Source: Candidatus Omnitrophota bacterium (GTDB lineage: Bacteria > Omnitrophota > Gorgyraeia > Duberdicusellales > 4484-171). From it: a stretch of DNA of 64,000 bases. The position numbers were made by a program, and so were the translations under genes. The number at the start of each line of letters is the position of its first letter. The first letter of the stretch is position 1. Shown piece after piece: positions 2,731 to 23,064 of the stretch. Where the stretch lies: contig JAIPHA010000001.1 in the NCBI GenBank assembly GCA_021735445.1, positions 24,396-88,395 of the forward strand. The letters run 5' to 3'. The notes under the pieces are model-generated. The model saw only the letters and a program-made list of their open reading frames with translations, had not been told where the DNA came from and made no database searches.

Positions 2731-3594
2731 ATGAAAAAAGAAAAAATAAAGAAAAAAGCAAAAAAACCGGATTTAGAAAGCCTAAAAAGCAAAGCTTTAT
2801 GGTTAAGGAAAAAAGTGTTGGATATGGCGGTCAATTGCGGAACGGGCCATATAGCTCCTTCTTTTTCTTGTATAGAGATAGTTGTTGCTTTATATTATAC
2901 CTCTTTTTTAAAAACTAACCCTAAAAAACCAGAATGGAAAAACCGGGACCGATTCATTTTAAGCAAAGGCCATGCTTCTTTAGCTTTATATCCGGTTCTG
3001 GCTGATTTAGGTTTTTTCCCATTTTCTTATTTAGACAGATTTGGCAAAAATAATAACTATTTGGGAGTGCATGCTGAAAATGAAATAGCGGGGATAGATG
3101 TTTCAGTGGGCTCCTTAGGCCATGGGTTATCTATTGGAGCCGGCCTGGCCTTGGCAGCAAAAACGGATAAAAAAAAGTATCGAACCGTGGTTTTGGCAGG
3201 AGACGGCGAATGCCATGAAGGTTCTGTATGGGAAGCGGCTTTATTTGCCGCCAGCCATAAATTGAATAATTTGATTTTAATTATTGATTATAACCGTCTT
3301 TCTGCAATGGGGTTTTTAAAAGATTATCAAGATATAGAGCCGTTTGAGAAAAAATGGGAGTCATTTGGATGGGATAGCATTTTTGTTAACGGCCATTCTT
3401 TTGAAAGTATCCTCCCCGGGCTTCTTGAGGCAAACAGCCCGGGCAGAAAAGCCCCTTTAGCTATAATAGCAAAGACGATAAAAGGCAAAGGGGTACCGTT
3501 TATGGAAAATAAGCCTATTTGGCATTACCGGGTTCCCAAAGGCAGTAAGTTAGCTGCTGCGCGTCGGGAGTTAACTAAGGGGGATAATCGGTAA
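2731..3594 (+). CDS. transketolase, N-terminal (TPP-binding) subunit of a split transketolase
   Basis: GHIAPSFSCIEIV, LSKGHASLALYPVL, GSLGHGLSIGAGLALA and VLAGDGECHEGSVWEA are hallmark Transketolase_N motifs. The 287-aa size fits a split form. Confidence 0.8.
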   Translation: MKKEKIKKKAKKPDLESLKSKALWLRKKVLDMAVNCGTGHIAPSFSCIEIVVALYYTSFLKTNPKKPEWKNRDRFILSKGHASLALYPVLADLGFFPFSYLDRFGKNNNYLGVHAENEIAGIDVSVGSLGHGLSIGAGLALAAKTDKKKYRTVVLAGDGECHEGSVWEAALFAASHKLNNLILIIDYNRLSAMGFLKDYQDIEPFEKKWESFGWDSIFVNGHSFESILPGLLEANSPGRKAPLAIIAKTIKGKGVPFMENKPIWHYRVPKGSKLAAARRELTKGDNR

Positions 3595-3596
3595 AA

Positions 3597-4538
3597 ATGA
3601 AGAAAAAAAAGGAGGGGATGCGGGAAGTATTTTTTAAAGAGCTTTTTAAGTTAGCTAAAAAAAATAAAAAAATCATGCTGTTAAGTGCCGATATCGGGGC
3701 TCAATGCCATGATGATTTCAGAAAAAAATTAAAAAACCAATATATTAACGCCGGAGTAGCCGAACAAAATATGATTGGGGTAGCCGCTGGTTTAGCGATG
3801 GCAGGTAAGATTGTTTATGTTTATTCGATTACGCCTTTTGTAACTATGAGGTGTTATGAACAGATAAGGGTTGATTTATGCGGTATGAATTTACCGGTAG
3901 CGATAGTCAGTATAGGCGCGGGCCTGGATTATTCTACTTTAGGCTTTACCCATCATGGGACAGAAGACCTAACCTTAATGAAAGCATTGCCCGGGATGGC
4001 TGTGTATAGCCCTTGTGATAATACTATGGCAAAAATGTTGGTAAACGAAACCTATAAAGGCAAAACCCCGCAGTATGTAAGGCTGGATCGGCGGGGCTTT
4101 CCTTTAATTTATGAAAAGGAAAAAGATATAGATTTTCAGCAAGGATTTTCACATTTAAAAAAAGGCAAAGACCTTTATATAATTTCAACAGGAAGGATGT
4201 TGCTTAATGCTTTGGATGCAGCTAAAAGGCTGCCCCTAGATTGTGGTGTAATTGATTTATTCAGGGTAAAACCGTTTAATAAAGATAACTTAGAGCTTAT
4301 TCTCAAGAAAGTAAAGTATGTAGCCAGCTTGGAGGAGCATTTTACTGACGGCGGTATTGGTAGTTCAGTTTCTGGTTTATTGGCCGGATTAAAACACAGG
4401 CCCTTGTTTAAACCTATCGGCTTAAACAATCAGTTTTGCAGAAGCTATGGCAGCAGGAAGTATCTTCAAAATATTTGCGGGCTTGATGCCGAAAGTGTTG
4501 CCAAAAACATCTTGAATTGGATAAGCAATAATGGTTAA
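3597..4538 (+). CDS. transketolase, C-terminal (pyrimidine-binding) subunit
   Basis: GVAEQNMIGVAAGLAMAGK, EQIRVDLCGMNLPV and GFTHHGTEDLTLMKALPGM match the Transket_pyr and C-terminal domains. The gene sits immediately downstream of the N-terminal subunit. Confidence 0.8.
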   Translation: MKKKKEGMREVFFKELFKLAKKNKKIMLLSADIGAQCHDDFRKKLKNQYINAGVAEQNMIGVAAGLAMAGKIVYVYSITPFVTMRCYEQIRVDLCGMNLPVAIVSIGAGLDYSTLGFTHHGTEDLTLMKALPGMAVYSPCDNTMAKMLVNETYKGKTPQYVRLDRRGFPLIYEKEKDIDFQQGFSHLKKGKDLYIISTGRMLLNALDAAKRLPLDCGVIDLFRVKPFNKDNLELILKKVKYVASLEEHFTDGGIGSSVSGLLAGLKHRPLFKPIGLNNQFCRSYGSRKYLQNICGLDAESVAKNILNWISNNG

Positions 4539-7443
4539 TCAACCAAAATTAATATCGAATAGGTTTAAAATTAGCCAGGATTTTCTGGTTATTCTTCTTC
4601 TGGTTATTGTCGTATCTTCGCTTTTTCTTCCCATTGTTTTTGAAAGTAAAGGAATTTTTCATAACGACCAGGCGATGTCAGAATTTATGCATCGCTATTT
4701 TTTTGCCGATAATCTACAAAAAGGGATTATTCCTTTATGGGACCCTCACGTTTGGGCCGGCGCTAATTTTCACTATTCTTTTAGTTATGCCGGGGAAAAT
4801 TATTATTTTGCTCTTTGGCCTTTTTATCTTATGGCCGATTTAGATAATTTAGGCCATTCTTACTTTATGATTTCAATTCTGCCTCTTTTTATCCATTATC
4901 TATTAGCAGCTATAGGAATGTTTGTGCTATTGAGGAAAATTATAAAATGTAGCTGCCTTTCTTCTTTAACCGGGGCAATAATTTATTTATTTAGCCCGGC
5001 TTTAGTTTATTCCTACGTTTGCGAGAGCCGGGTAATTATAGAAAGTTTGCTGCCCTGGTTAATTATTATATATATGGGTAATACCTTCCGGCGGCAATGG
5101 CCGAGGCTATGCTTAGGAGGCCTTGTTTTTTTCTTTATTTGTGTATCAGGATGCATTCAAGACCTGCCTTTTGTATTGATTATTTGGGGAGGCTTTGTGG
5201 TTGCTTCAATTTGTATTAATTTAGCAAAAAAAAGAAAAAAAGCAGTAAGACAGTCATTAATTCCGGCTTTAATTATTTTTATTCTTGGAATATTGTTAAG
5301 CTCGGTCTATTTTTTTTCACTTTTAGACGGAGCTAAATATTTTAAGATAAGGCCGGAATTAGTTACCGGGATGAGGCTGGCATATTTACCGGCTAACCTA
5401 TCATTTTCTTATTTGATTACTCTTTTTATCCCTAATTTTTACGGAAGCATCTCCGGAGTTAATTTTATTTTTAGGCGGTTAATGTTTTGGTATGCCAACA
5501 TGAGCGGGGGGATGGGGATTTCTCTGGCAGTGGCTTTAGGTGTATTTTTGCCGATTTTTTTTGCCAGAAAAATGAAAAACAAGAATTATCTAATTTATGC
5601 AATTTTAGGGATTGCCTTGTATGTCCTTTCTATTTTGCTTAGTTTAGGAGCTAATTCGCCATTTTATAAATTATTTATCGGTTGGGTGCCGATAGTGGGG
5701 GGGGCAACTTATCCAATTCGTTACCGCTTTATCCAGTGTTTTTTTGCGGCGGTATTAGCGGCTTTGGGAATTCATTTTTTAACCAACTATGATTTCAGGC
5801 GGCTTAGGGAAATATTTCCTAAGTTTGTTTTAGGATACTTTATTTTTATTTTATTTTTTGTTTCTTTAGCGCTTTTTCTTCCCCGTCAGAGTTCCGGAGA
5901 ATTTTGGATTGGAAAAAGAGGAACAAAGAAAATAGAAGGGAGCGTGCCTTCCGGCGAATGGGCAGGGGTGTATACTTCAAGAAAGGCAAGAGTAAAAAAG
6001 GTCGGTTTATTTTTAAAGGAAAAATCAAAAGGCGAAATCCGCTATTCGGATAATCATTATGATTGTTCCTTAGATGAAAGTTTTTTAGTGAAAAAATATA
6101 ATATTCAAGAGAAGGGGTGGGTGGAATTCAACGTAGATGTTCCCGCCAATAAATTTCTTTGGGTTTTTAATGACGAAGGCAACCTTGGATTTTGGCAGGA
6201 TGATACTCCATCTTTTTTTTATAGCAAAGATAAATGGATAATCCAGCCGCAAGTTAATGCGATAAGCCTTTATCAAAAGGCTGGTCCGGGGGGCCCAGTA
6301 AGCCTGTTTTTTAAGTTAAAAAATTCCTATATTGAAAAGAAGCCGATAGTGAGGTCTTTTTTTTATTGGATTTTTGTTTCTTTTGTCTTAATAGCGGGAG
6401 GATACTTGTTTTTGCCTAAAAGCGTGGGGTTTTTATTGACTGTGATAATAGCAGGGGAGTCTTTAGTCTTTGGCATGACGGCTTTTTTTGGGTCTACATT
6501 TAATGAAGCCCAAACGAGAACCCGGGAGTTTTTGCCTCATAATGTAAGGGCGTTGAATCCTTTAGAACATCCGATGTTTCAGCGGATGAGTGAAAAAGTT
6601 CTTCCTTTGGTTGATAATAGCCAGCTGCGTATTGCTACTGATTATCCTTTTTATGATAATTTAGGTTATTTGACTGATAACTTTTTTTTAATGGGTGAGC
6701 CCGCCCATTTTCTTGACGCGAGGTTTAGGCGGGCGATAGAAGCGGCTTATCAGGAGCAGATGTCGATGGGGTTTTTTTATGATGGAGGCGGTTTTTTGCC
6801 AAAAGGAGGCGAATTTTTAAATAACTTTTCGGTAGGTTATTTTTTAAGCGGCCATAAGGGCCGAATATTTGATAAGGAAGAAGTTATTTCTTTTCAGGAC
6901 CAAAGAAAGTATTATTTTCATATTAACAAAAATGTTTTGCCGCGGGCCTATAGTGTTACCAGAGTGGTGCCGGCTTCAGAAGAGAGGCAGTTTGGAGAGT
7001 TAATTTCCGGGGATTTAGGCGAAGTTGTTTATGTACCGCTAGGTAGCGATATAGGAAATAAGCAAATTTCTCAAAAAGTTGTTTATAATTTTAACCAACT
7101 TCAGGAGAAAAACAAAATCAGAAAAATTAATTATGAGAACCCCAACAAGATAAGCGTAGATATCAACGTCACTGTTGCCTCTATGCTGGTTTTTAGCGAA
7201 GTGTGGCATCCGGGCTGGAAAGCTGCCGCCGGCGGGAGAGCAAAAAAAGTCTATAGAGTTAATTATTGCCAGCGGGGAGTTTGGTTAGATCCGGGAAATC
7301 ATAATTTAGTCCTTTTCTTTAACCCAAAAGGCTGGCAGACAGGAGGAAAAATTACTTTAATAACTATTATTTTTATTATTTTTCTATTGTCGGTTAAAGC
7401 GCTCGCCAAAAAAAAGAAACGGTTAAACGATTCGGAAATTTAA
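4531..7443 (+). CDS. large polytopic membrane protein, YfhO-like / GT-C fold glycosyltransferase candidate
   Basis: 970 aa with roughly 12 N-terminal TM helices. The N-terminal region (HNDQAMSEF...LWDPHVWAGANFHY) resembles the YfhO family. There is a large extracytoplasmic region, a late TM helix and a final C-terminal TM helix. Confidence 0.4.
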   Translation: MVNQPKLISNRFKISQDFLVILLLVIVVSSLFLPIVFESKGIFHNDQAMSEFMHRYFFADNLQKGIIPLWDPHVWAGANFHYSFSYAGENYYFALWPFYLMADLDNLGHSYFMISILPLFIHYLLAAIGMFVLLRKIIKCSCLSSLTGAIIYLFSPALVYSYVCESRVIIESLLPWLIIIYMGNTFRRQWPRLCLGGLVFFFICVSGCIQDLPFVLIIWGGFVVASICINLAKKRKKAVRQSLIPALIIFILGILLSSVYFFSLLDGAKYFKIRPELVTGMRLAYLPANLSFSYLITLFIPNFYGSISGVNFIFRRLMFWYANMSGGMGISLAVALGVFLPIFFARKMKNKNYLIYAILGIALYVLSILLSLGANSPFYKLFIGWVPIVGGATYPIRYRFIQCFFAAVLAALGIHFLTNYDFRRLREIFPKFVLGYFIFILFFVSLALFLPRQSSGEFWIGKRGTKKIEGSVPSGEWAGVYTSRKARVKKVGLFLKEKSKGEIRYSDNHYDCSLDESFLVKKYNIQEKGWVEFNVDVPANKFLWVFNDEGNLGFWQDDTPSFFYSKDKWIIQPQVNAISLYQKAGPGGPVSLFFKLKNSYIEKKPIVRSFFYWIFVSFVLIAGGYLFLPKSVGFLLTVIIAGESLVFGMTAFFGSTFNEAQTRTREFLPHNVRALNPLEHPMFQRMSEKVLPLVDNSQLRIATDYPFYDNLGYLTDNFFLMGEPAHFLDARFRRAIEAAYQEQMSMGFFYDGGGFLPKGGEFLNNFSVGYFLSGHKGRIFDKEEVISFQDQRKYYFHINKNVLPRAYSVTRVVPASEERQFGELISGDLGEVVYVPLGSDIGNKQISQKVVYNFNQLQEKNKIRKINYENPNKISVDINVTVASMLVFSEVWHPGWKAAAGGRAKKVYRVNYCQRGVWLDPGNHNLVLFFNPKGWQTGGKITLITIIFIIFLLSVKALAKKKKRLNDSEI

Positions 7444-8728: not shown

Positions 8729-9836
8729 GATAAGAGGCTTGTTAAATAATGAAGTTTTTTTATCAGAAATTTTTCAAGCTTTTCCGAATTTAGCCGATAA
8801 TATAACTTCTTTTTTTCTTAATAGGCAGACTTTAGGCGGCCCGACTTTTTTAAGCTGGGTTTTAACTTATAATTGCCCTTTATCTTGCAGGCATTGTTAT
8901 ATTCAACCGCGTTCTGATATTTTATCAAAAGACGATAGATTGAAAATCGCTAAAAAAATAGGCCAGTCTTCTGTGTACTGGGTTTCTCTTATCGGAGGAG
9001 AACCGTTAATTACTCCTGAGATTATGGATATAGCAAAAATTTTAAAAAAAGAAAAGAAAAAAGTAACCATAACTACAAATGGTTTATTTTTAAATAATTT
9101 TATTCAAGAAATAATTGATTTGGATTTAGACGCAATTCAAATAAGTGTAGATAGCCATAAGAAAGAGCAGCATGATTATCTAAGGAATTCTCCGGGATTA
9201 TTTGAAAATGTTTTAAAATCGGTTATAGAAATAAGAAAAAAAAGAAAATCAAGCAAACCCTTTATAAAGTTGAGATGCACGTTGTCGCGAGAAAATTATT
9301 TAGAAGTTATTAATTATGTAAGGTTTTGGAAGGATAAGGCTGACGCGATTTATTTTCAACCTGTAGTTGATAATATAATGAATCGCGTAAGAGAAAGCGA
9401 GATCTTATTTAGGAAAGAAGAAGAGTCGTCTTTTAGAAAGGTATTTTCGGAATTACAAAAGGAATTTGCTAGTTTTTCTAATCTATATTATAATTTTATG
9501 CCTGATTATATTTTTCATAGAGAGCAATTGTGGAGGAAGCTAAAATTTAAGTGTATTCTTATTCCGGCTTCCGCATTATATATATTGCCTGATGGCAATA
9601 CAGCTGTTTGTTATGGCCGAAGAGATAAAACAGGAGGCAATTTAATCAATAAAAGCATTAAAGAAATCTGGAGAAGCAAGGAGGTTAAGGCTTTACAGGA
9701 TGATATAAAGAATAAACATTTAGAAGGTTTTGACCGTGAATGTTTTTGCTGGGAGCCTTATACGCTGCCTAACCTTTATTTGCTCAGTTTGTATAATTTT
9801 ATATCCAAGGTTATAGGTAAAAAATGGGAAGGATAG
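8721..9836 (+). CDS. radical SAM protein (SPASM/twitch-like C-terminus)
   Basis: CPLSCRHC motif, IGGEPLI, and C-terminal Cys residues (CILIP...AVCYG...ECFCWEP). Confidence 0.65.
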   Translation: MNKIRGLLNNEVFLSEIFQAFPNLADNITSFFLNRQTLGGPTFLSWVLTYNCPLSCRHCYIQPRSDILSKDDRLKIAKKIGQSSVYWVSLIGGEPLITPEIMDIAKILKKEKKKVTITTNGLFLNNFIQEIIDLDLDAIQISVDSHKKEQHDYLRNSPGLFENVLKSVIEIRKKRKSSKPFIKLRCTLSRENYLEVINYVRFWKDKADAIYFQPVVDNIMNRVRESEILFRKEEESSFRKVFSELQKEFASFSNLYYNFMPDYIFHREQLWRKLKFKCILIPASALYILPDGNTAVCYGRRDKTGGNLINKSIKEIWRSKEVKALQDDIKNKHLEGFDRECFCWEPYTLPNLYLLSLYNFISKVIGKKWEG

Positions 9837-10561
9837 ATAACAATTCTTTATCCGTCATCGTCCCGGCTTTTAATGAAGAGAATTATCTTAAGCCCACAGT
9901 TGAAATGGTTTCTGGTGTAGCAAAGAAACAATTTGATGATTATGAAATTATTATTTTTAATGATGGGAGTGTAGATAAAACAGGACAGATAGCTAATAAA
10001 TTAGGCAATCAATATAATCATGTTAGAGTGGTTCATCATAAGTCTCCTATTTGTCTTGGCGGTATTTATAAAGAAGGGATAAAATTGGCAAAGATGAACT
10101 ATGTTATTCTTGTAAATGGGAAGAATGATATTGTAAGTAGTGAATTGGAAAAGATATTATCTTTAAAAGGTAAGGCAGATATGATTGTTCCTTATACCAC
10201 AAATAGAGGGCAGAGATCTTTTAACCGTAGAACTCTCTCCATTATTTTTGTTTATTTTCTTAATTTTATTTTTAATTTAGATTTACGCTACTATAATCAC
10301 TATGTTTTACATAGAAGAGAGATAATAAGTATTATTAATATATACACTGATAGTTATGCGTTTCAGGCAGAAGCTCTAATAAAATTAATTAAATTGGGAT
10401 ATAGCTATATTCAGGTGGGGGTTGCTGACAATTTTGATAATGATGTTGCGACTAAGGCCTTCAGATTGAAGAATATTATTGGGATTAGTCTATTCTTTAT
10501 TAAAATAATATATGAAATCTATTTTACTAGGAGATATATATTGAAGGATAAAGGTCGTTAA
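9824..10561 (+). CDS. GT2 family glycosyltransferase (Dpm1/GtrB/CsbB-like polyprenyl-phosphate sugar synthase candidate)
   Basis: LSVIVPAFNEENYL and IIIFNDGSVDKT (DxD region), with a short C-terminal hydrophobic segment. Confidence 0.65.
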   Translation: MGRIDNNSLSVIVPAFNEENYLKPTVEMVSGVAKKQFDDYEIIIFNDGSVDKTGQIANKLGNQYNHVRVVHHKSPICLGGIYKEGIKLAKMNYVILVNGKNDIVSSELEKILSLKGKADMIVPYTTNRGQRSFNRRTLSIIFVYFLNFIFNLDLRYYNHYVLHRREIISIINIYTDSYAFQAEALIKLIKLGYSYIQVGVADNFDNDVATKAFRLKNIIGISLFFIKIIYEIYFTRRYILKDKGR

Positions 10562-10600
10562 TTTTGTGGAGAAATAGATCTTAAAGAAAACCGGGCTCTT

Positions 10601-11956
10601 ATGCGCTTGATTAAAAAAAAATCCGATATATTAAATCTTTGCGTTTATACATTAAGCTTTGCGGCTTTAATAATAGTATTTCTATTTGCTACCACTAGAT
10701 TTACTAATCCTCATTTTGGATGGGATATTAGTGCTAAAGTAGATAAATATCGCATTTTGTTTGGATTGTATGTTCTTTTGATGCCGGTTTTATATTTCAT
10801 GAAGATAAAACAAAGACAAGTTCTATTATTTATCTTGTCTTTGATGTTTTCAACTATAATGGTGGGAAAGTTGTCCTTCATTGTTTATCTGGGAAGTTTG
10901 TTCTATTATCTTCTTATATATGTTAAAATTAGGACTTTTGTTAAATTATTAATTGGAGCTATTGTATATATTGTCTTTGTTTTGCAGGTAATAAAGAGTT
11001 TTCAGTACTATCGACCTTCCTATTTATATATCTATATGTTTGTAACTCTTTTTCCTATGAGATACCTTCTTTTTTTTCATTATAACAGTAGTACTAATTT
11101 CAAGAAAGAACCAGTTCTTAATTACATAAATTATATATTTTTTCCAGCTTATCTTTTAATTCATCCTTTTATTATAATAATGCCAAAATATAGTAGTTTT
11201 AAGAATTCGTTTTCATATGGAAAGAATTATATTGCGTCTCTGAAGTCTGGAGTAATATATTTTTGTAAGGGACTTGCTATTTTATTAGTGTTAATGACGG
11301 TCGATTATTTTATAGAGAATGTTTTTGCAACATCTATTAGCAGAGAGACAGTAAATGATATATTGAGTGCAACATATATAATCCCTTATATATGGGTAAT
11401 CTCATATATATTAAGCTGTGGATATATTATACTTGGACTTATGCATGGTGTTGGTTGTCGGATAAAATCACCTTTTGGCAAGTTTGCATTACCTATGAAT
11501 ATAGTTGATTTCTATGGGCGTTTCTTACGGCATTTTAAAGATTATATTGTTAGTATATTCTATTTTCCAGTATTTCTTCTTACAAAATCATGGAATACTT
11601 ATGCTTCAATCTCTATTTCTGCTATAGCTGCTATAATGTTAGCAGGGATCTGCCATAGAGTATTGGGATTAGGTTTTCAGTTTTGTTCAATTATGCACTA
11701 TGAGGGTATAGATTTTGTTGAGAACTCGTTGGAGTTAGGTTTAGTTCAGGATGGTTTCTTTGATAAGCATTTAATTATAAAGATTATGTACCTACTTATC
11801 TTAAGTTTTATTTTCGCTATTCAGTTAATGTATAATCATGCTTCAAATTATGGGGCAGGGAAGCTTGCTTGGATTAAAAATACAAAAGATTCGTTAGTGT
11901 CTAAATTTCTACAGTTATTAATAGCAATGATAGTTGTAAGGTGCATATTTTTGTAA
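10601..11956 (+). CDS. MBOAT-like polytopic membrane O-acyltransferase (DltB/AlgI-like) candidate
   Basis: 451 aa with about 10 TM helices. A His-containing segment FYGRFLRHFKDYIVSIFYFPV resembles the MBOAT motif FWRRWH...RDYLYIPL. Its genomic context with a DltA-like ligase and DltC-like carrier supports the call. Confidence 0.45.
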   Translation: MRLIKKKSDILNLCVYTLSFAALIIVFLFATTRFTNPHFGWDISAKVDKYRILFGLYVLLMPVLYFMKIKQRQVLLFILSLMFSTIMVGKLSFIVYLGSLFYYLLIYVKIRTFVKLLIGAIVYIVFVLQVIKSFQYYRPSYLYIYMFVTLFPMRYLLFFHYNSSTNFKKEPVLNYINYIFFPAYLLIHPFIIIMPKYSSFKNSFSYGKNYIASLKSGVIYFCKGLAILLVLMTVDYFIENVFATSISRETVNDILSATYIIPYIWVISYILSCGYIILGLMHGVGCRIKSPFGKFALPMNIVDFYGRFLRHFKDYIVSIFYFPVFLLTKSWNTYASISISAIAAIMLAGICHRVLGLGFQFCSIMHYEGIDFVENSLELGLVQDGFFDKHLIIKIMYLLILSFIFAIQLMYNHASNYGAGKLAWIKNTKDSLVSKFLQLLIAMIVVRCIFL

Positions 11957-12122
11957 ATCTGAACTATAAAAACAAACTTAATTTTATCAAAATGCTTAAA
12001 AAAGCAATAAATACAAGTAAAGTTATTATAAATTATATTACAGGGTTTATTTTAACTTAAAATGGTTGATTCGTTAATAGGGAGCAGTATAGATGTTGTG
12101 ATTGAAGGGTTTTTCTAAAATT

Positions 12123-12128
12123 CAGGAG
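12123..12128 (+). promoter_or_regulatory. Shine-Dalgarno AGGAGG, 10 nt upstream of the 12139 ATG
   Basis: A perfect AGGAGG at the end of a 180-bp AT-rich intergenic region, which is the largest intergenic gap in the plus-strand block. Confidence 0.5.
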
Positions 12129-12138
12129 GTTATTTAAA

Positions 12139-12969
12139 ATGGTGTCATCTATCAGGAATTATAAAAGTTTAAAAGGATATTTAAAAGAATCTGAAACTAT
12201 GTCTTTTGTTGGTGTATATGATGTTTTTTCTGCTAAATTGGCTATTAAAGAATTTAAGGGAATATTCTTAAGTGGGTTTAGTTTTTCTGCAAGTTTTTTA
12301 GGTATGCCTGATACAGGTTGTTTCTCTAGCGAGGATATGATTGCTTTTGTTAAGAGATTAAGAACTTCTATTCCTGATGCATATCTTCTTGTAGATTGTG
12401 AAGATGGTTTTGGAGATGAAGAAAAAACTGTAGCGGTTGTAAAAGAACTAGAAGATTGTGGTGTGAGTGCTGTTATATTGGAAGATCAAAAGCGGCCTAG
12501 GAAATGTGGACAGTTGGATAATAAACTTCTTTCGTCATGTGAAGCTCAAGTTTCTAAGCTTAAAGCGGTTATAAAAGAGAGAAGGAATATGTTTATTATA
12601 GCAAGGACAGATGCGGCGGATCCTGATGAAGCTCATAGAAGAGTAGTTGAGTATTCAAAGTGTGGTGTAGATGCTATAATGATGGAAGGCATGAAAGAGC
12701 TTTCTCTTATAAGAAAGTTGAGGAAACGGGTGAATTGCCATCTGGTGGTTAATAAGATATATGGGGGAAAAACACCAAATTGGTCTGAGGACGAGCTTTA
12801 TAAGAATGGGGTGTCAATTGTAATATATAGCACTGTTTGTCTTTTCGCGGCTCAATACGCAATTCAGAGATACCTAAACAAATTAAAAGGAACGAAACTA
12901 ATACCTTCGCGAGAGACAGTTTCTCTTGTGGAATGTAACCGATTATTTGAAGATAAAAAAAATAAATAA
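12139..12969 (+). CDS. isocitrate lyase / PEP mutase (ICL/PEPM) superfamily enzyme
   Basis: VGVYDVFSAKLAIKEFKGIFLSGFSFSAS...LLVDCEDGFGDEEKTVAVVKELEDCGVSAVILEDQKRPRKCGQLDNKLL. The EDQ...RKCGQ loop resembles the lyase branch (PrpB/ICL KRCGH) more than PEP mutase (EDK...NS). Confidence 0.7.
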   Translation: MVSSIRNYKSLKGYLKESETMSFVGVYDVFSAKLAIKEFKGIFLSGFSFSASFLGMPDTGCFSSEDMIAFVKRLRTSIPDAYLLVDCEDGFGDEEKTVAVVKELEDCGVSAVILEDQKRPRKCGQLDNKLLSSCEAQVSKLKAVIKERRNMFIIARTDAADPDEAHRRVVEYSKCGVDAIMMEGMKELSLIRKLRKRVNCHLVVNKIYGGKTPNWSEDELYKNGVSIVIYSTVCLFAAQYAIQRYLNKLKGTKLIPSRETVSLVECNRLFEDKKNK

Positions 12970-12984
12970 GCAGGGGTAAGACGT

Positions 12985-14490
12985 ATGATTCAATTTTTGA
13001 ATGGTAAAATAGGTGAAATAGTTGATTATGAAAACGATGAAGAATGGTCAGCTGAAAAAATTATAAAAGAAGTAGATAAAAGAATTACATATCTTTTAGA
13101 GAAGAATGTTTTGCCTGAAGAAAAGATTATAATTATTCATGGGAATAATATTCAATTTTTTGCAGATCTTCTGGCCCTATGGTCTTTAAATGCTTGCGTA
13201 GTTTGTGTAGATCCAACTGTGGGAGCAAGAGAATTTAAAACAATAGCTAGATTTTGTGATTCTCGTATCGCATTATACAATGGCAAGGTGTCCAAAAAAT
13301 TGTCTTCATTGGTTGGTAGTTTAATAGAATTTGTAGATTTGAAGGAAATAGCCAAAGAATATAACCGGGGTTCAAAGATTCCTTTAAATAAAATTGATTT
13401 AGATAGACCTGCTCTTATTTTATTTACATCTGGAACTACCGGTAATCCTAAAGGGGTTGTTCATTCTTTAAGGACTTTAATAGCAAAATGGGAGATATTA
13501 AAAAAGCATGTACCATTGGGATATCTTGAGATATCATTGTGTCTTCTTCCGACACACTTTGGTCATGGACTTATCTGTAATTGTCTTTACCCTTTGTTAA
13601 ATGGAAAGAAACTTATTATATTACCAAGGTTTAATCTGAAATCAATTATGGAGCTAGGGCGTATAATAGATAGATACAAAGTTACATATATGAGTTCGGT
13701 TCCTGCTGTTTGGAAATCTGTTTCAAATTTAAGTGATTGTCCTCGGGGAAAGACATTACAACTTGTAACATGTGGTTCTGCTCCACTTGGGGCGAGATTA
13801 TGGAGAGATATCCAGAGATGGACTTCTACTTACAGGGTATGGAATACATACGGTATCACTGAGGTTGGAAGTTGGGTCGGTGGTTTGCAGCAAGATATAG
13901 TACGACCAGTAAGTGGATTGATTGGTTGTGGTTGGGGGGCAGACTTTATGATAACAAAAGAAGGAGCTGATTCTATAGAGGAAATTGTAGCAGAGAAGAG
14001 CCTACCGGTTGGAAGAGAAGGGCATATTTGGATTAATACAGCTGCTGTTATGTTGGGTTATTATAAAAGAGAGGATTTAACCTGTAGTGTAATGAGGGGG
14101 AAATGGTTTTATACTGGTGATATTGGATATGTAAGAAAAGACGGATTGCTTGTTCTTACTGGAAGGGTGCGCAATGAGATTAATTTTGCCGGATTAAAAA
14201 TAAGTCCGGAAGATATTGATTTAGTTATTGAAGAACATGAAGCTGTAAAAGAATCATGTGTGTTTGGAATGAATGATAAAATAACGGGAGAGATAGTAGC
14301 AGTAGCGGTTGTATTTAAAGATTATATAAATAAACCTACAATCCATGAAATGAAAAACTGGGTAAGCAATTATGTATCGGATTATAAAGTACCTAGGATA
14401 TGGTATGAGCTTAGAAACATACCAAAAACTTCACGAGGTAAATATAATAGAAAGAAAGTAGCTAAGTATTGTAAAGAACTTGGAAATTAA
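12985..14490 (+). CDS. AMP-dependent adenylating ligase (DltA / acyl-CoA synthetase family)
   Basis: The AMP-binding core FTSGTTGNPKGVVHS, plus YTGDIGYVRKDGLLVLTGRVRNEINFAGLKISPEDID (A8 motif). Length is 501 aa. Confidence 0.8.
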   Translation: MIQFLNGKIGEIVDYENDEEWSAEKIIKEVDKRITYLLEKNVLPEEKIIIIHGNNIQFFADLLALWSLNACVVCVDPTVGAREFKTIARFCDSRIALYNGKVSKKLSSLVGSLIEFVDLKEIAKEYNRGSKIPLNKIDLDRPALILFTSGTTGNPKGVVHSLRTLIAKWEILKKHVPLGYLEISLCLLPTHFGHGLICNCLYPLLNGKKLIILPRFNLKSIMELGRIIDRYKVTYMSSVPAVWKSVSNLSDCPRGKTLQLVTCGSAPLGARLWRDIQRWTSTYRVWNTYGITEVGSWVGGLQQDIVRPVSGLIGCGWGADFMITKEGADSIEEIVAEKSLPVGREGHIWINTAAVMLGYYKREDLTCSVMRGKWFYTGDIGYVRKDGLLVLTGRVRNEINFAGLKISPEDIDLVIEEHEAVKESCVFGMNDKITGEIVAVAVVFKDYINKPTIHEMKNWVSNYVSDYKVPRIWYELRNIPKTSRGKYNRKKVAKYCKELGN

Positions 14491-14504
14491 TAGTAGGAAC
14501 AATT

Positions 14505-14762
14505 ATGGAGATAGCAGAGATACAGAAGATTTTGAAAGATTTTATAATAGAATTATTAAATGAGAGAAATATACTAGATAATACCGCTCTTATTGAGTCT
14601 GGGTTAATAGATTCATTGAGCATAATTCATATTGTCTTGTTTATAGAATCCAGATTCTCTTGTAAGTTAAAGCCTTTTGATATTCAGATTGATGATTTTC
14701 AGACTATTAAAAAAATGGCTATAGTAGTTTTAAAAAAGATAGAGGCTAAAAAGTTAGATTAG
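14505..14762 (+). CDS. acyl/peptidyl carrier protein (DltC-like)
   Basis: 85 aa with the phosphopantetheine-attachment motif GLIDSLSII, located immediately downstream of the adenylating enzyme. Confidence 0.7.
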   Translation: MEIAEIQKILKDFIIELLNERNILDNTALIESGLIDSLSIIHIVLFIESRFSCKLKPFDIQIDDFQTIKKMAIVVLKKIEAKKLD

Positions 14763-14895
14763 TTAAAGAATATTAGATATAAAAGACTTTTATATTTGTA
14801 TAGTTGATTTGTGAAATATTATCAGCTTATCTGATATGGTTAGCAATATGTGTTCACGAAAATGCTTTAAGGAAATTTTGTTGTAGATATACAAA

Positions 14896-15846
14896 ATGAA
14901 AGTTCTTATTACTGGTGCTACGGGATTTATAGGAAAGAGGTTAGTACAACGACTTTTGCAAAATCATATTGAGGTGGTTTGCACGGGACGTTCTTTAAGT
15001 AAGCTAGATCATTATATAGGTAGAGTCAATATTTTATATCTTGATATACGAGATAAGGAGAAAGTTGAGGATGTATTTAAAAAAGAAAGGCCTAACCTTG
15101 TGTTTCATTGCGCTGCTAATACTACTAATAATAGTTTGAGAATATTAAGAAGAACTAATGTTCAAGGTACCAAAAATGTATTGGATGCGTGTTTAGAAGC
15201 TGGTGTAGATAAGGTTGTTTATCTTAGCTCTATAAGTGTTATAGCTGGCAATAAAGAGGCTTGTCTTAATGATTGCTTACCATATAAAGCTAGGAATAGG
15301 TATGGTAGATCAAAAATAGCGGCAGAGAAGTTGGCTCGGGAATATAGGAAGAGAGGGCTAGAAATTTCCATATTAAGGCCCTCTCTTGTGTATGGAGAAA
15401 GAGATTATCATAAGGTTTCTTTGATGGTAAGGTTAATTTCTAAGCGGCTGATTCCGATAGCAGGCAGAGGCGAAAATGAAGTTAGCCTTACCTATATAGA
15501 AAACCTTATAGATGTAATGATGATTGCGATTGATAAAAAATCCGCATATAAGGGAACCTATATTGTAGCGGATAAAGAAACGATAAGTTTTAAGGATTTG
15601 TTTTTATATATAGCAAAATTATTAGAAATAAAAAAATCCTGGTTTTTACCTGACTGGCTTGTTTCCATTTTTGCTTATTGCCCTTTTGTAGGAGGATATG
15701 CAAAAGTTTTTTTAGAAAATAATATTTGCAGTATAGATAGAATAAAAAATCAACTAAATTATATTCCTAAAATCTCTCTATATGAAGGTTTGAGAAGAAC
15801 TGTGGATGAACATAAAAAGAGGTATAAATTAAAAAGAAATTATTAG
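14896..15846 (+). CDS. NAD-dependent sugar epimerase/dehydratase (extended SDR)
   Basis: MKVLITGATGFIGKRL Rossmann motif and YGRSK (the YxxxK catalytic dyad). Confidence 0.8.
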   Translation: MKVLITGATGFIGKRLVQRLLQNHIEVVCTGRSLSKLDHYIGRVNILYLDIRDKEKVEDVFKKERPNLVFHCAANTTNNSLRILRRTNVQGTKNVLDACLEAGVDKVVYLSSISVIAGNKEACLNDCLPYKARNRYGRSKIAAEKLAREYRKRGLEISILRPSLVYGERDYHKVSLMVRLISKRLIPIAGRGENEVSLTYIENLIDVMMIAIDKKSAYKGTYIVADKETISFKDLFLYIAKLLEIKKSWFLPDWLVSIFAYCPFVGGYAKVFLENNICSIDRIKNQLNYIPKISLYEGLRRTVDEHKKRYKLKRNY

Positions 15847-15882
15847 CGGCGAGCATATTTTTTTTAAGCTTTTATTGACAAC

Positions 15883-17121
15883 ATGAAACAAATACCGCGT
15901 TTTATTCCTACATTAACGATATCAGAAATTATCCAGGCTATTTTTATTAATGTCAAAAATAGAAAAAAAATTGATTTTCTTAAATTATTTAGGGAAGAAT
16001 TCGCCAAATATATAGGTGTAAATCATGCTATCGCTGTGCCTTCGGCCCGAATTGGGCTGGCTGCTATCCTTTCAGCTTTGAAAATACCCAAAGGTAAAGA
16101 AGTTATTATTCCTAGCCTTACTCATCAGGCAATCCCTTATATATTTTGCGATTTTGGCCTAAAACCCCGGTTTGTCGACATTGATCCGGATAGATATTGT
16201 ATTGATGTTGATAAAATAGAAGAAGCAATCAATGAAACCACCGCTTTGATATTTCCTGTACACCTTTACGGAAGAGCGTGCAAGATGAAAGTTATTATGG
16301 AATTGGCCAAGAAGCACGGGTTGTTTGTGATTGAAGATTGCGCTCAGAGTTGCGGAGGGGGGTGCCTTGAGCAAAAATTAGGGAGTTTCGGTATTGCTTC
16401 AATTTTTTCTTTTCATCCCCATAAAAACATTTCTGTTTTAGGGTCAGGGATGGTAACGACTAATTCCCGGGAGATTTTTGAAGATATTACTCAATCGGTA
16501 AAACAATATGAGCGTATGTGTTGGAAAGGAGTTGTAAAAAGATTATTATATTCGGCCGGCTTAAGGTTTGCCACTCTTGCTGGGGTATGGAGAAATATTA
16601 CTGTTTTAATTTTAAAGATTTTTAACCGGCAAGGAGTCGATATTGTAGAATTTATGACCAATGAGGTTCCGGAAAAAGATAGGGAAAAAGCAAAAAAAAC
16701 CAAATGGTATTTACCCCAAAGCTATCATGGCGTTATCGGCTTGAAGCAGTTAGAAAGATTAGATTCATTAAATAAAAAACGCATCAATAACGGTAATATT
16801 TTACGGGAAGGACTAAAGAAGATAGAAGGGATTAATCTTGTTTCTCAGGCTCAATCGGATGAAAATATTTATACTACTTTTGTAGTGCGAGTTAACAACA
16901 GGGGCCGGTTTAGGCGCAGGATGCTTAGATTAGGGGTTGATACTCACTCTGGAAATATGTTTGCCGGCTCTACAATACCAGGATTTGAAAAAAGAGGTGA
17001 GTCTAAGGTCGCCGACGATATAGTAAACCGGATGGTTCATCTGCCGGTTTATCCGGATTTAAGCCGAAAAGATTTAAAAAAGATTATTGAAAGCGCGGAA
17101 AAAGCGATTAATAATGAATAA
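15883..17121 (+). CDS. DegT/DnrJ/EryC1-family PLP-dependent aminotransferase
   Basis: VIEDCAQSCGG and GSFGIASIFSFHPHKNISVLGSG (PLP lysine). Confidence 0.75.
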   Translation: MKQIPRFIPTLTISEIIQAIFINVKNRKKIDFLKLFREEFAKYIGVNHAIAVPSARIGLAAILSALKIPKGKEVIIPSLTHQAIPYIFCDFGLKPRFVDIDPDRYCIDVDKIEEAINETTALIFPVHLYGRACKMKVIMELAKKHGLFVIEDCAQSCGGGCLEQKLGSFGIASIFSFHPHKNISVLGSGMVTTNSREIFEDITQSVKQYERMCWKGVVKRLLYSAGLRFATLAGVWRNITVLILKIFNRQGVDIVEFMTNEVPEKDREKAKKTKWYLPQSYHGVIGLKQLERLDSLNKKRINNGNILREGLKKIEGINLVSQAQSDENIYTTFVVRVNNRGRFRRRMLRLGVDTHSGNMFAGSTIPGFEKRGESKVADDIVNRMVHLPVYPDLSRKDLKKIIESAEKAINNE

Positions 17122-18211
17122 AAAAAATATCCCTTGGTGGAAAACTGTTTTGGGACAAGAAGAGATAGAAGTAGTAAGGAAATCTATACTAAACCGAAAT
17201 ATTACCCAAGGAATTATTACTAAAGACTTTGAAAACCAATTGGCCGGTTTATTAGGTGTGCCTTATTTAGTTTTGGTAAATAGCGGCAGTTCTGCTCTTT
17301 TGGCCGCGTTAATTGCTTGCGGCATTGGGCCGGGAGATGAGGTTATTGTTCCCGGATTTACTTTTATCGCGACGGTTCAGGCTCCTTTAATTTTAGGGGC
17401 CAAAGTTAGACTGGTAGACGTTAAGCCCAACCGGCCGGTTATAGACGAAAACTCAATAGAAGCTGCAGTTAATTCAAAGACTAAAGCCATTATTCCGGTT
17501 CACCTGAATGGACGGGCGGCTAACCTGAAAAAAATCAATAAAATAGCTAAAAAATATAAAATATCGGTAATCGAAGATGCTGTTCAGGCCCTATGTTCTA
17601 AATGCAAAGGGGAGTTTTTAGGTACTCAATCAGACATTGGGGTGTTTTCTTTGGGGGTTACTAAATTTATCACTGCGGTTCAAGGAGGGTTTTTAGTTAC
17701 CAGAAAGAAAGATATTTTCAACAAGTTGCAAAAGATAAAAAATCATGGCTGCTTGTCTTTGGAAGGAGGGGTTTTGAAGTGTGAGACGCTAGGGTTTAAT
17801 TTTAAATTCAATGACCTCTTTGCCGGTATCGGCTTAAAACAACTAGAAAAAGTAAAAGATAAGATTAAATCATTTCAAAATATCTATAGTTTTTATAAAA
17901 AAGAACTTGTTTCGGTTAGTTGCATGGATTTGGTAGAGGTTAAGCAAGGAGAGGGTGAGCTTCCTCTGTGGATAGAGGTTATTAGTAAAAAAAGAGAAAA
18001 AGTTTTGCGCCTGTTAAAGCAAAAAAGGGTGGAGGCTAAGCCTTTTCATAAAAGTATTGGCGAAATTAGCTACATTAAGAATCGCAAAAAGCTCAAATAT
18101 TCTCAGTTTTATGCTAAAAAGGGATTGATTTTACCCAGCGGACCCGACCAGAAAAATAAAGATCTAAAGTATGTGATAAAGGCTATAAAAGAAATCGAAA
18201 AAGATTTATAA
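17114..18211 (+). CDS. DegT/DnrJ/EryC1-family PLP-dependent aminotransferase (perosamine-synthase-like)
   Basis: VIEDAVQAL and GVFSLGVTKFITAVQGG. I chose the ATG at 17114 (MNKKNIPWW), which overlaps the upstream stop, rather than the ORF-track start at 17087. Confidence 0.75.
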   Translation: MNKKNIPWWKTVLGQEEIEVVRKSILNRNITQGIITKDFENQLAGLLGVPYLVLVNSGSSALLAALIACGIGPGDEVIVPGFTFIATVQAPLILGAKVRLVDVKPNRPVIDENSIEAAVNSKTKAIIPVHLNGRAANLKKINKIAKKYKISVIEDAVQALCSKCKGEFLGTQSDIGVFSLGVTKFITAVQGGFLVTRKKDIFNKLQKIKNHGCLSLEGGVLKCETLGFNFKFNDLFAGIGLKQLEKVKDKIKSFQNIYSFYKKELVSVSCMDLVEVKQGEGELPLWIEVISKKREKVLRLLKQKRVEAKPFHKSIGEISYIKNRKKLKYSQFYAKKGLILPSGPDQKNKDLKYVIKAIKEIEKDL

Positions 18212-21570: not shown

Positions 21571-23049
21571 ATGGGATTTTTATTTAAACACAGAAAAATA
21601 ATATTGGCCTGTATTATTTTGTTGGGCTTTGCTTTACGAATCTATTATATAAACACAAATGTTTGTTCAAACGATGACCCCCAGCATATTATAGCCGCAA
21701 GGCAGATTTCTTTAAATCCAAAAAATTTACAATTGCCTTTAGTCGACAAGCAAAAAGATAGCTGCCCGATGGGCATAAGGTATGTGATGCGTTTGGGGCT
21801 ATATCTTTTTGATAAACCGGTATTGGGAATAAAATTTCCCTGCATGCTTTTCCAGCTATTGGCTGTTTTTATGGTTTATTTTTTTGCAAAAAGATATTTT
21901 GGGATAGAGGTAGCTTTGCTTGCAGCTTTTTTGCTTTCTATAACCCAGTATAATATAGGGAATCCTTCTACAAACGGAGTTATGCATACTTTGACGATGA
22001 GTTATTTTTTGATTGTATTAAAGTCTATCGATGAAAATAAAAAAAAATGGTTATTATTATCTGGAGTTGTTTTAGGAATAGGTTTCTGGTTTAGGGAACA
22101 TGTCCCTTTAATCGCTTTAGCGGCTTTTTTGTTCCTGCTATTTTCAAAGGAAGATAGGCATTGGCTAAGGAGTAAATATCTCTGGTTTTCATTTGGTATA
22201 GCTTTTTTATTAGGGCTGCCTTTGCTTGTATCCAACTTCCGTCCGGAAATCAATCGGTTTGAATTTATATTAGAAGAATCCGCAATAGGGCCGAGTTTAA
22301 ATGCTATAGGAACTTATTTGGGAGAATTTATTTTACTGATTGTTAAACCTTTTCCCGAACTATTTCAACACGTAGCCAGCAGCCTGGACGCAGAGTATCC
22401 ACCGGTTAATTTTGTTCTAGGCGCGATCATATTAATATCGGTGGGATTGTCAGTAAAAAAAGCAAAGCCCGCGACTAGATTGTTGGTGACCTGCTTTTTG
22501 GTTAATTTCTTTTTGTTTAGCTTCATAAGGAGAAATGATGTTATTGAAAGTTTTTGGTCGTTGGGCAGCTTAGATTGGAGTGGTTTAGGTTTTACTTCAG
22601 GAATTATTTTAGCTGCCGATAGATTGATATATTGGAAAAATAAATACGGGATTCAAGCTAAAATCGCCATAGGATTAATAATTATTTTTACCTTGGCAAG
22701 AAGCTGGAGCTTTATTATTTTTCCCTTGAATGCGTATTTTCCCGTTAAGTATTACCGGGTAAAAATAGATAGTTTTGAAAATGCACAACATTTTCTTGAT
22801 AAGGGCTTAAGAAACGAATCTAAAAGGTTGCTTAGGGTTTTATGCCGGATATCAAAAAAAGGGACGCCTTATGCGGAACTTCATAGGCCAGCTGCCGCTA
22901 AGCTTGTTAAAATATTTTTAAAAGAAGGTCAATATAAAAAGGCGGGCAAGTACTTATACCGGATACTTAGCCGTAACCCTAACGATGCTTGGGCTTTATC
23001 CCTTATCGAAAAGCTTTCTTTTGCTAAAAAAGATTTTATTTGTGATTAA
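21571..23049 (+). CDS. GT-C membrane glycosyltransferase, PMT/ArnT-like (GT39/GT83-like), copy 1, with C-terminal TPR-like tail
   Basis: A polytopic N-terminus with the conserved first-loop segment ISLNPKNLQLPLVDK...RYVMRLGLYLFDKPVLGIKFP, and a helical C-terminus (YKKAGKYLYRILSRNPNDAWA). Confidence 0.55.
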   Translation: MGFLFKHRKIILACIILLGFALRIYYINTNVCSNDDPQHIIAARQISLNPKNLQLPLVDKQKDSCPMGIRYVMRLGLYLFDKPVLGIKFPCMLFQLLAVFMVYFFAKRYFGIEVALLAAFLLSITQYNIGNPSTNGVMHTLTMSYFLIVLKSIDENKKKWLLLSGVVLGIGFWFREHVPLIALAAFLFLLFSKEDRHWLRSKYLWFSFGIAFLLGLPLLVSNFRPEINRFEFILEESAIGPSLNAIGTYLGEFILLIVKPFPELFQHVASSLDAEYPPVNFVLGAIILISVGLSVKKAKPATRLLVTCFLVNFFLFSFIRRNDVIESFWSLGSLDWSGLGFTSGIILAADRLIYWKNKYGIQAKIAIGLIIIFTLARSWSFIIFPLNAYFPVKYYRVKIDSFENAQHFLDKGLRNESKRLLRVLCRISKKGTPYAELHRPAAAKLVKIFLKEGQYKKAGKYLYRILSRNPNDAWALSLIEKLSFAKKDFICD

Positions 23050-23064
23050 AATTAAAAAAAAGAA

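Follow-up and report, generated by a model that had tools for sequence, protein, structure and literature searches.

The stretch of DNA analysed here, 64,000 nucleotides of contig JAIPHA010000001.1 from a Candidatus Omnitrophota bacterium (hereafter the window), carries on its plus strand a cassette of four genes (10601-11956, 12139-12969, 12985-14490 and 14505-14762) that encode a membrane protein, an enzyme of the isocitrate lyase/phosphoenolpyruvate (PEP) mutase (ICL/PEPM) superfamily, an adenylate-forming ligase and a small stand-alone carrier protein. Our preferred reading, to which we give a probability of roughly 0.55, is that these proteins, in the manner of Dlt and by way of a carrier, transfer a non-amino organic acid across the membrane to an envelope glycan that resembles lipopolysaccharide (LPS). 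The system is Dlt-like in its cytoplasmic half, yet it is not a dlt operon. The four open reading frames (ORFs), and the motifs FTSGTTGNPKG and GLIDSLSI described in them by a first-pass annotation of this DNA, were confirmed in position, strand and sequence. The genes and their diagnostic positions are as follows.

10601..11956, plus strand: divergent DltB-like membrane acyltransferase of the MBOAT superfamily, 451 aa
11507..11545, plus strand: DFYGRFLRHFKDY, degenerate MBOAT 'FWRRW(H/N)...RDY' motif, from the family alignment
11654..11656, plus strand: codon of His352 within AGICHRV; by the family alignment, this residue shares its column with the invariant catalytic His of MBOATs (DltB His336)
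12139..12969, plus strand: ICL/PEPM-superfamily enzyme of the C-C lyase branch, 276 aa (PF13714, 2.7e-35)
12481..12513, plus strand: gating loop EDQKRPRKCGQ, lyase-type EDQ-x5-CG, with the catalytic Cys123
12985..14490, plus strand: ANL-superfamily adenylate-forming ligase, 501 aa (PF00501, 2.3e-50; PF13193, 1e-12)
13423..13455, plus strand: A3 core motif FTSGTTGNPKG, the adenylate-forming P-loop, ligase residues 147-157
13552..13569, plus strand: THFGHG of the A4 region, from the HMMER alignment to 'YIFDIS' of LgrA
14505..14762, plus strand: stand-alone carrier protein, 85 aa (PF00550, 18.1 bits, below the gathering score)
14613..14615, plus strand: codon of Ser37 (in GLIDSLSI, carrier residues 33-40), predicted phosphopantetheine attachment site

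The gene of the membrane protein is separated from that of the PEPM-family enzyme by 182 nt, whereas only 15 nt lie between the latter and the ligase gene and 14 nt between the ligase and carrier genes. Promoter and terminator scans of the cassette region gave matches at chance level only, an Rfam scan of positions 10400-15000 found no family, and the 182-nt gap folds no better than shuffled sequences (z = -0.23). The gaps of 14-15 nt, together with the lack of a terminator signal, point to co-transcription of the PEPM, ligase and carrier genes. The identical locus is present in two assemblies.

The four cassette proteins

The membrane protein gave no match at E ≤ 10 in any of the sequence searches against Pfam (0 matches to PF03062 and PF13813), NCBIfam and the PDB, and a word-indexed search of 5.8 billion proteins returned only the protein itself. 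Its relatives were obtained solely through an exhaustive HMMER search, which yielded 51 cluster representatives, nine of them at E ≤ 1e-30. A family profile was built from 47 of these representatives, and a closer subset of 11 sequences was aligned separately. Against the PDB, the profile matched DltB alone (8jem/6bug, E = 3.5e-12, over about 310 residues). Scanned one by one, 21 of the 47 members matched the NCBIfam DltB model TIGR04091 (at best 2.9e-9) and no other MBOAT model in that library, the window protein itself not matching TIGR04091; Pfam MBOAT and MBOAT_2 were weakly matched by three and four members, respectively. The window protein also displays the multi-helix funnel/tunnel architecture of the MBOAT fold, and HHAT, PORCN and LPCAT3 are structural neighbours close to the MBOAT model. 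Therefore, from the matches of the family to DltB, to TIGR04091 and, weakly, to the Pfam MBOAT models, we conclude that this protein is a highly divergent MBOAT, probably related to DltB.

The column of the catalytic His, to which His352 is assigned, contains His in 35 of the 47 family members when a register shift of one residue is allowed, and the HMMER alignment of His352 to GFWHG of DltB is one column off. In the degenerate motif DFYGRFLRHFKDY, Arg307 is near-invariant, and His311, two residues past Leu309, lies in a column occupied by His or Tyr in 46 of 47 members. Cys362 is invariant among the 11 closest members. About half of the closest relatives present a Tyr 4-5 residues before the C-terminus, a position taken by Cys448 in the window protein. 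A genome-locus search with the 11-sequence alignment returned a single locus. The lowest G+C stretch of the window (positions 10001-12000, 0.287 compared with 0.32-0.40 elsewhere) coincides with this gene, and is likely due to its composition, rich in Phe, Ile, Leu, Tyr and Lys, rather than to a foreign origin.

The ligase possesses the complete set of ANL motifs (FTSGTTGNPKG for A3, YTGD for A7 and SRGK, with the A10 Lys) and matches both PF00501 and PF13193 above their thresholds. Its best PDB relatives are 4-coumarate-CoA ligase (4CL), oxalyl-CoA synthetase, fatty-acyl-CoA ligases and adenylation domains of nonribosomal peptide synthetases (NRPS), including LgrA, while DltA is found neither among its best 60 PDB matches nor among its best 25 NCBIfam matches. 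In an alignment of modest confidence, the Gly of THFGHG falls opposite the Asp of the NRPS/DltA 'FD' motif, which binds the alpha-amino group; the THFGHG segment is invariant across three ligase orthologs. The likeness to 4CL, oxalyl-CoA and fatty-acyl enzymes, the absence of DltA and the Gly at the Asp position would fit a substrate that is not an amino acid. The ligase probably loads the carrier protein, in view of its complete core motifs, of the orthologs (53-59% identical) beside a carrier gene in L003 and L014 or inside the MBOAT-carrier cassette of L006, and of the wider relatives (41-48%), which in every case precede a carrier and then an acyltransferase. Oxalate, to which an oxaloacetate acetylhydrolase (OAH)-like lyase and a ligase sometimes labelled oxalate-CoA ligase by JGI would point, is kept as one candidate acid only, because 4CL scores higher and the JGI labels are automatic. 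Relatives of the ligase number more than 2,000 at E ≤ 1e-60; a metagenome scan with its alignment, using N-terminal patterns, retrieved two relatives only, both 25% identical.

The carrier and its counterparts at five other loci, L003-L006 and L008, make up one family, with identities of 33-53% and an I-D-S motif invariant in six homologs. The profile of this family matches many structures of peptidyl and acyl carrier proteins (PCPs and ACPs), the best at 2e-9, and ranks PltL, PigG and the aminoacyl carrier protein 4h2s (1.8e-6) above DltC. The DltC models of NCBIfam scored 26.9 and 19.9 bits with the carrier, under their cut-offs of 68 and 52. By these comparisons, the carrier appears nearer to type II PCPs than to DltC. 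It belongs with the phosphopantetheine-binding carrier proteins, helical proteins of about 80 aa in which a (D/N)S(L/M) Ser opens helix 2.

The PEPM-family protein is best described, on its motifs and scores, as a lyase-branch ICL/PEPM enzyme and not a PEP mutase. It stays below all NCBIfam equivalog cut-offs (152 bits versus 354.4 for prpB, TIGR02317, and 83.6 versus 319.55 for PEP mutase, TIGR02320), and its best PDB matches are 4iqd, the petal death protein and 2-methylisocitrate lyases (MICLs). Its gating loop differs from the PEP-mutase signature, which we take to be EDK-x5-NS. The pocket motif VNKIYGGKTP (N-x-I-x-GGKTP) is nearer to the petal death protein and 2,3-dimethylmalate lyase than to MICL, and a Phe is aligned with the MICL arginine (in 'GAYRAM') that binds the succinate carboxylate, presumably Arg241. 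The lyase core, D58/E115/C123/R156, is intact, and all four residues are invariant across 124 relatives; the corresponding Asp58, Glu115, Cys123 and Arg158 have catalytic roles in MICL (PMC7609661). The His of the K(K/R)CGH signature, present in 122 of the 124 relatives, is not kept in the window enzyme, which reads RKCGQ. The subfamily is broad (274 matches at E ≤ 1e-20, 43-55% identity). In a neighbour-joining tree of the 124 relatives, the window enzyme paired only with that of locus L009, and no single ligase-linked clade was resolved.

Set beside the first-pass annotation, these results bear out its placement of the membrane protein in MBOAT, through the fold and the specific affinity to DltB, although PF03062 gave no match. 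The family models agree with its ICL/PEPM enzyme (PF13714) and its ligase (PF00501), and PF00550 is sub-threshold for the carrier. Its suggestion of a substrate other than D-Ala is in line with the ligase features described above, whereas its clear equivalents of DltA and DltC stand as regards function but not kinship, the ligase not being DltA-like and the carrier lying nearer PltL, PigG and 4h2s.

Recurrence and exchangeable parts of the cassette

The arrangement recurs in independent lineages and is therefore not a chance juxtaposition. All four genes are found together again in L006/L007, an independent lineage, where GT2, carrier, MBOAT-like (just 28% identical to the window protein), PEPM (47%) and ligase (55%) genes are assembled. 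Partial versions are seen in L003 (ligase C-terminus, 55%, carrier and MBOAT-like protein), L009 (PEPM, 55%, followed by the ligase N-terminus), L010 (a C-terminal ligase fragment and PEPM, beside NeuB and a CMP-sugar synthetase) and L014/L015 (methyltransferase, PEPM, ligase, 53%, carrier and then a soluble 405-aa protein). Indeed, the PEPM gene adjoins the ligase gene in five independent loci (window, L006, L009, L010 and L014/15) and in both gene orders, and ligase orthologs of 53-59% identity adjoin PEPM and/or carrier genes in L003, L006, L009 and L014. In L013, PEPM is present without an adjacent ligase.

In the close MBOAT subfamily, all six loci (window, L003, L004, L005, L006/7 and L008) have a homologous carrier at most two genes away from the MBOAT. 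Moreover, two distant MBOAT-like members, P0027 (535 aa) and P0032 (642 aa), bear a C-terminal carrier domain (carrier profile E = 8e-13 and 5e-9, respectively) and thus represent Rosetta-stone fusions. The loader is what varies: in L004 (2369-4934), L005 (6734-9308) and L008 (6138-9380), a class II aminoacyl-tRNA synthetase (aaRS)-like protein of about 300 aa (tRNA-synt_2b) replaces the ANL ligase, alongside a carrier of the same family and an MBOAT of the same subfamily. Amino acid:carrier-protein (aa:CP) ligases may accordingly feed an MBOAT in the aminoacylation of glycans. The MBOAT and the carrier are the conserved core, with an interchangeable loader, and in some of the loci the ligase is accompanied by the PEPM lyase as an accessory; the ligase and the carrier, in turn, are a general acyl-donor module of glycan clusters.

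The co-occurrence that the first-pass annotation had proposed to look for is thus provided by L006/L007, and the ligase-carrier pair sits in glycan clusters and not in a lipid-metabolism setting. None of the outcomes that this annotation had named as refuting its proposal was observed. The PEPM enzyme, which it counted as part of the system, is an optional addition, missing from many ligase-carrier modules.

Other candidate transferases were observed after ligase-carrier pairs related to that of the window. A soluble protein without Pfam match follows the ligase-carrier pair in L018 (8788-10002, 404 aa) and L014 (4361-5578, about 405 aa), and in L019 (8793-9890) the pair is followed by a GNAT (Acetyltransf_9), beside an STT3/AglB oligosaccharyltransferase. 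A DUF3108-like protein of 225-240 aa with one N-terminal transmembrane helix, 40% identical between L006 (7521-8243) and L004 (1612-2289), accompanies the MBOAT cassette with either loader type and, in these two loci, may be an extracytoplasmic partner that performs the final transfer. Tblastn searches of the window with the DUF3108-like, GDSL-like, DUF5989 and 405-aa partner proteins found no counterpart.

Proposed route and competing explanations

In the route that we propose, the C-C lyase would split an alpha-hydroxy or alpha-oxo di- or tricarboxylate, releasing a small non-amino carboxylic or 2-oxo acid. From the chemistry of its family and its conserved synteny, the ANL ligase would adenylate this acid and thioesterify the phosphopantetheine on Ser37 of the carrier. 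The acyl-carrier would then dock at the cytoplasmic face of the MBOAT and the acyl group would pass through its tunnel via His352, as the fold, the synteny and the fusions suggest. Most speculatively, the acyl group would reach an extracytoplasmic acceptor, either the completed glycan or a polyprenyl-phosphate sugar that GT2 would provide, with no DltX/DltD relay; these acceptors are proposed because of the adjacent GT2 gene and the context rich in GT-C enzymes. The route would be modular, since the MBOAT and the carrier also occur with an aaRS-like loader, and the ligase and the carrier with soluble acyltransferases.

A bolder version of this reading is tentative and clearly the less probable of the two. 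In it, a DltB-derived MBOAT clade invisible to Pfam would be the core of a modular, DltX/DltD-independent glycan acylation, in which the carrier would be charged either by an aaRS-like ligase or by a lyase-fed ANL ligase, the latter with a non-amino group, for example oxalyl or a short 2-oxo/alkyl acid, and the acyl group would be transferred directly to a GT2-made polyprenyl-phosphate sugar, with installation by a GT-C enzyme afterwards. Such a route, if it exists, would supply the long-orphan aa:CP ligases with a biological role as well.

The Dlt pathway of Firmicutes teichoic acids (DltA, DltC, DltB, DltX and DltD) shares with the cassette an adenylate-forming loader, a small stand-alone carrier and an MBOAT that moves the acyl group from the carrier across the membrane (PMC12148441; PMC11035591). 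This pathway requires DltX, with its FxYxxF motif, and the SGNH protein DltD, while other bacterial MBOATs bear a Tyr motif at their own C-terminus (PMC12148441). In contrast, the cassette has an acyl-CoA-ligase-like loader without the alpha-amino-binding Asp, a carrier apparently nearer to type II PCPs, no DltX, DltD/SGNH or FxYxxF, a Leu at the aligned position of the second catalytic residue and an additional PEPM-family lyase, and it lies in an LPS-like glycan island of an Omnitrophota host. Omnitrophota are of the Gram-negative type. The MBOAT-SGNH acetylation systems PatA/PatB, AlgI/AlgJ/AlgX and WssH similarly combine the MBOAT fold with trans-membrane acylation of an extracytoplasmic glycan, but they use acetyl-CoA as donor, bear a shuttle hexapeptide with Tyr on two additional C-terminal helices and depend on an SGNH partner (PMC12148441). 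The cassette differs from them by its carrier-protein donor, by the lack of the shuttle motif in the window protein and by the lack of an SGNH gene.

The aaRS-like aa:CP ligases of Bradyrhizobium and Agrobacterium (the PDB 4h2s family) are connected to the cassette by the carrier family, through the profile match at 1.8e-6, but the loader of the window is an ANL ligase and not aaRS-like. We know of no biological role of the aa:CP ligases, and our literature search found no paper linking them to MBOATs. Vibrio cholerae offers two further systems, acting on Gram-negative envelope glycans or lipids, in which a ligase and a stand-alone carrier supply an unusual acyl group: AlmEFG, for the addition of glycine to lipid A, and RfbK-O of V. 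cholerae O1, for the N-acylation of perosamine with tetronate. The final transferases are a lipid A-type acyltransferase (AlmG) or soluble enzymes, and neither an MBOAT nor a PEPM-family enzyme is known to take part. Finally, the window lyase has in common with the petal death protein, 2,3-dimethylmalate lyase, MICL and oxaloacetate acetylhydrolase the PF13714 domain, the Mg-binding Asp/Glu, the loop Cys and the Arg, and differs from them in having KCGQ for K(K/R)CGH, in scoring far below the equivalogs and in belonging to a glycan-acylation cassette rather than to central metabolism. Carrier-dependent acylation by MBOATs is known in itself; the gene combination of the cassette was not described in the literature that our search covered.

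Several observations weigh against the acylation route. Leu309 of the membrane protein occupies the second polar catalytic position, which is Asn in the family motif WWRRWNxHFRD; this second conserved active-site residue is His289 in DltB and Asn or Asp in other MBOATs (PMC11035591). In most of the closest relatives, Tyr (about eight), Asn or Ser replaces the catalytic His. Because of these two replacements, the chemistry of this subfamily may differ from that of classical MBOATs. The C-terminal FxYxxF shuttle is absent, as the tail (...IAMIVVRCIFL) has no Tyr. There is no credible DltX-like small ORF in the cassette gaps, and neither the cassette nor any annotated ORF of the window matches DltD, SGNH or GDSL proteins, in agreement with the absence of DltD noted in the first-pass annotation; the GDSL-like protein of L004 likewise found no match in the window by tblastn. 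With DltX, DltD/SGNH and FxYxxF all lacking, the final transfer step is left without a recognised catalyst. As for the carrier, its PF00550 score of 18.1 bits is below the gathering score of 20.8, and no phosphopantetheinyl transferase was identified in the window. The PEPM enzyme departs from residues that are near-invariant in its subfamily (H125Q, H208Y, Q206K, P233V and D88E) and could, for this reason, have an altered or reduced activity. A PEPM homolog from an Opitutia genome lies in an unrelated gene context, and the wider ligase relatives of L018 and L019 (41-48% identical) are followed by a carrier and then by a different acyltransferase, with no PEPM gene. Since PEPM is missing from these modules and homologs at 44% identity occur in unrelated contexts, synteny is the one argument for PEPM as the supplier of the acid.

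These last points are also the basis of the foremost alternative, in which acylation by ligase, carrier and MBOAT is real but the ligase uses a common cellular acid, and PEPM has a different task in the sugar pathway, such as acting on a keto-acid sugar or providing pyruvate or glyoxylate for another step. In addition to the PEPM-free modules of L018 and L019, the breadth of the PEPM subfamily, its housekeeping-like contexts, the PEPM gene beside NeuB and a CMP-sugar synthetase in L010 and that without an adjacent ligase in L013 would agree with it. Nevertheless, five independent loci have PEPM directly beside the ligase, with both orders represented, even in L010 a ligase fragment precedes it, and in the window the gap is 15 nt, so that we regard this explanation as improbable, though with an appreciable chance of being correct. 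Lipidation, in which a fatty-acyl-AMP/ACP ligase and the MBOAT would move a medium or long acyl chain onto a glycan, glycolipid or protein in the manner of eukaryotic MBOATs, could draw on the long-chain-fatty-acid-CoA ligase subfamily that the ligase matches best in NCBIfam (222 bits), on FadD13, FadD10 and other fatty-acyl ligases among the PDB matches and on the structural proximity of HHAT, PORCN and LPCAT3. However, all the ligase scores are far under the family cut-offs, 4CL and oxalyl-CoA synthetases score higher in the PDB, and the sequence affinity of the MBOAT family is specifically with DltB. The conserved PEPM lyase contributes nothing to the supply of fatty acids, and the aaRS-like loader that feeds the same MBOAT/carrier pair in sister loci argues for small polar acyl groups. 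Lipidation thus seems unlikely.

The carrier could also serve a reductive off-loading, the ligase and the carrier feeding the downstream SDR as a thioester reductase and a DegT enzyme transaminating the resulting aldehyde to an amino building block, with the MBOAT unrelated. The SDR does match NAD_binding_4 (86.7 bits) and the thioester reductase model TIGR01746 (96.9 bits), and DegT genes come next. Its top score, however, is with the Epimerase family of sugar-nucleotide enzymes (148 bits), and the substrates of DegT enzymes are NDP-keto-sugars. The cassettes of L006 and L014 lack a following SDR, and the carrier is linked to the MBOAT by both synteny and gene fusions. We consider this explanation very unlikely. 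Even less credible is a canonical or near-canonical D-alanylation by a true dlt operon, or a phosphonate pathway with a genuine PEP mutase. The DltB affinity, the presence of DltC among the carrier matches and the name of the Pfam family, PEP_mutase, might suggest one or the other, but DltD and DltX are missing and the ligase, without the amino-binding Asp, is not DltA-like; the EDQ-x5-CG loop and the 83.6 bits against a cut-off of 319.6 speak against a PEP mutase, and phosphonopyruvate decarboxylase was not found. The motif tests effectively exclude both.

If the acylation of an envelope glycan by a carrier-dependent MBOAT is accepted, its significance lies in the fact that such trans-membrane acylation has so far followed one paradigm, the D-alanylation of teichoic acids in Gram-positive bacteria. 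Judging from the cassette and its relatives, this logic may extend to uncultivated lineages of the Gram-negative type, where the acyl groups would differ, the loaders could be swapped and no DltX/DltD relay would be used; the known chemistry of envelope glycans would thereby be broadened. The cassette and its relatives also expose an MBOAT clade overlooked by standard domain libraries, offer a testable function for the aaRS-like carrier-protein ligases and tie an ICL/PEPM-family lyase to glycan decoration, the first instance as far as our literature search showed.

The surrounding glycan island

Nearly the entire window around the cassette is occupied by a glycan island, whose genes next to the cassette are the following.

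9824..10561, plus strand: GT2 glycosyltransferase, 245 aa, with a hydrophobic C-terminal helix (PF00535, 3.6e-17)
14896-15846, plus strand: SDR
15883-17121, plus strand: DegT aminotransferase
17087-18211, plus strand: DegT aminotransferase

The GT2 gene ends 39 nt upstream of the MBOAT-like gene, and L005, L006 and L008 likewise have a GT2 beside their MBOAT-like gene or close to it. Its product may be a lipid-linked sugar acceptor; the PDB matches of the enzyme are generic only, and that search did not show whether it is a polyprenyl-phosphate glycosyltransferase. The SDR and the two DegT genes (14896..18211) probably function in amino-sugar synthesis. They are outside the conserved cassette, as no SDR follows it in L006 or L014. 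A comparable set of SDR, DegT and formyltransferase genes is found near the ligase in L018.

The island further contains a heptosyltransferase fragment, a Bac_transf priming transferase, a Wzx-type flippase, GT1 and GT2 enzymes, four GT-C enzymes of the PMT_2 family, a 970-aa YfhO-like protein, three DegT aminotransferases in all with one class-III aminotransferase, an ABC-2 permease with a 1,126-aa ATPase, and at least 14 radical-SAM genes. The small GT2, the four PMT_2 GT-C enzymes, the YfhO-like protein and the SDR and DegT enzymes, with ArnB among the best NCBIfam matches of the last two, resemble an Arn-like or three-component glycosylation toolkit (4531-7443, 9824-10561, 21571-24568, 26630-28042, 43268-45538 on the minus strand and 14896-18211), which suggests periplasmic transfer of polyprenyl-phosphate-linked amino sugars.

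The density of radical-SAM genes is unusual for a glycan island, with at least 14 of them between positions 751 and 60617 (e.g., 52119-56378, 56412-59150 and 49844-52114). They include a 1,419-aa protein made of three fused radical-SAM+SPASM modules, a 912-aa protein with two radical-SAM modules and five B12-binding radical-SAM enzymes. A transketolase-like TPP enzyme is split at 2731-4538 into separate genes for its N-terminal and pyrimidine/C-terminal halves. A second membrane protein of 451 aa (30581-31936), with neither a Pfam match nor similarity to the MBOAT-like family, adjoins an LPG_synthase_TM protein (31981-32901). At 45713-49869, the ABC-2 permease is followed by the ABC ATPase, which at 1,126 aa is unusually long, and in which the ABC domain match is limited to residues 31-161 and the remainder includes a long C-terminal extension without annotation.

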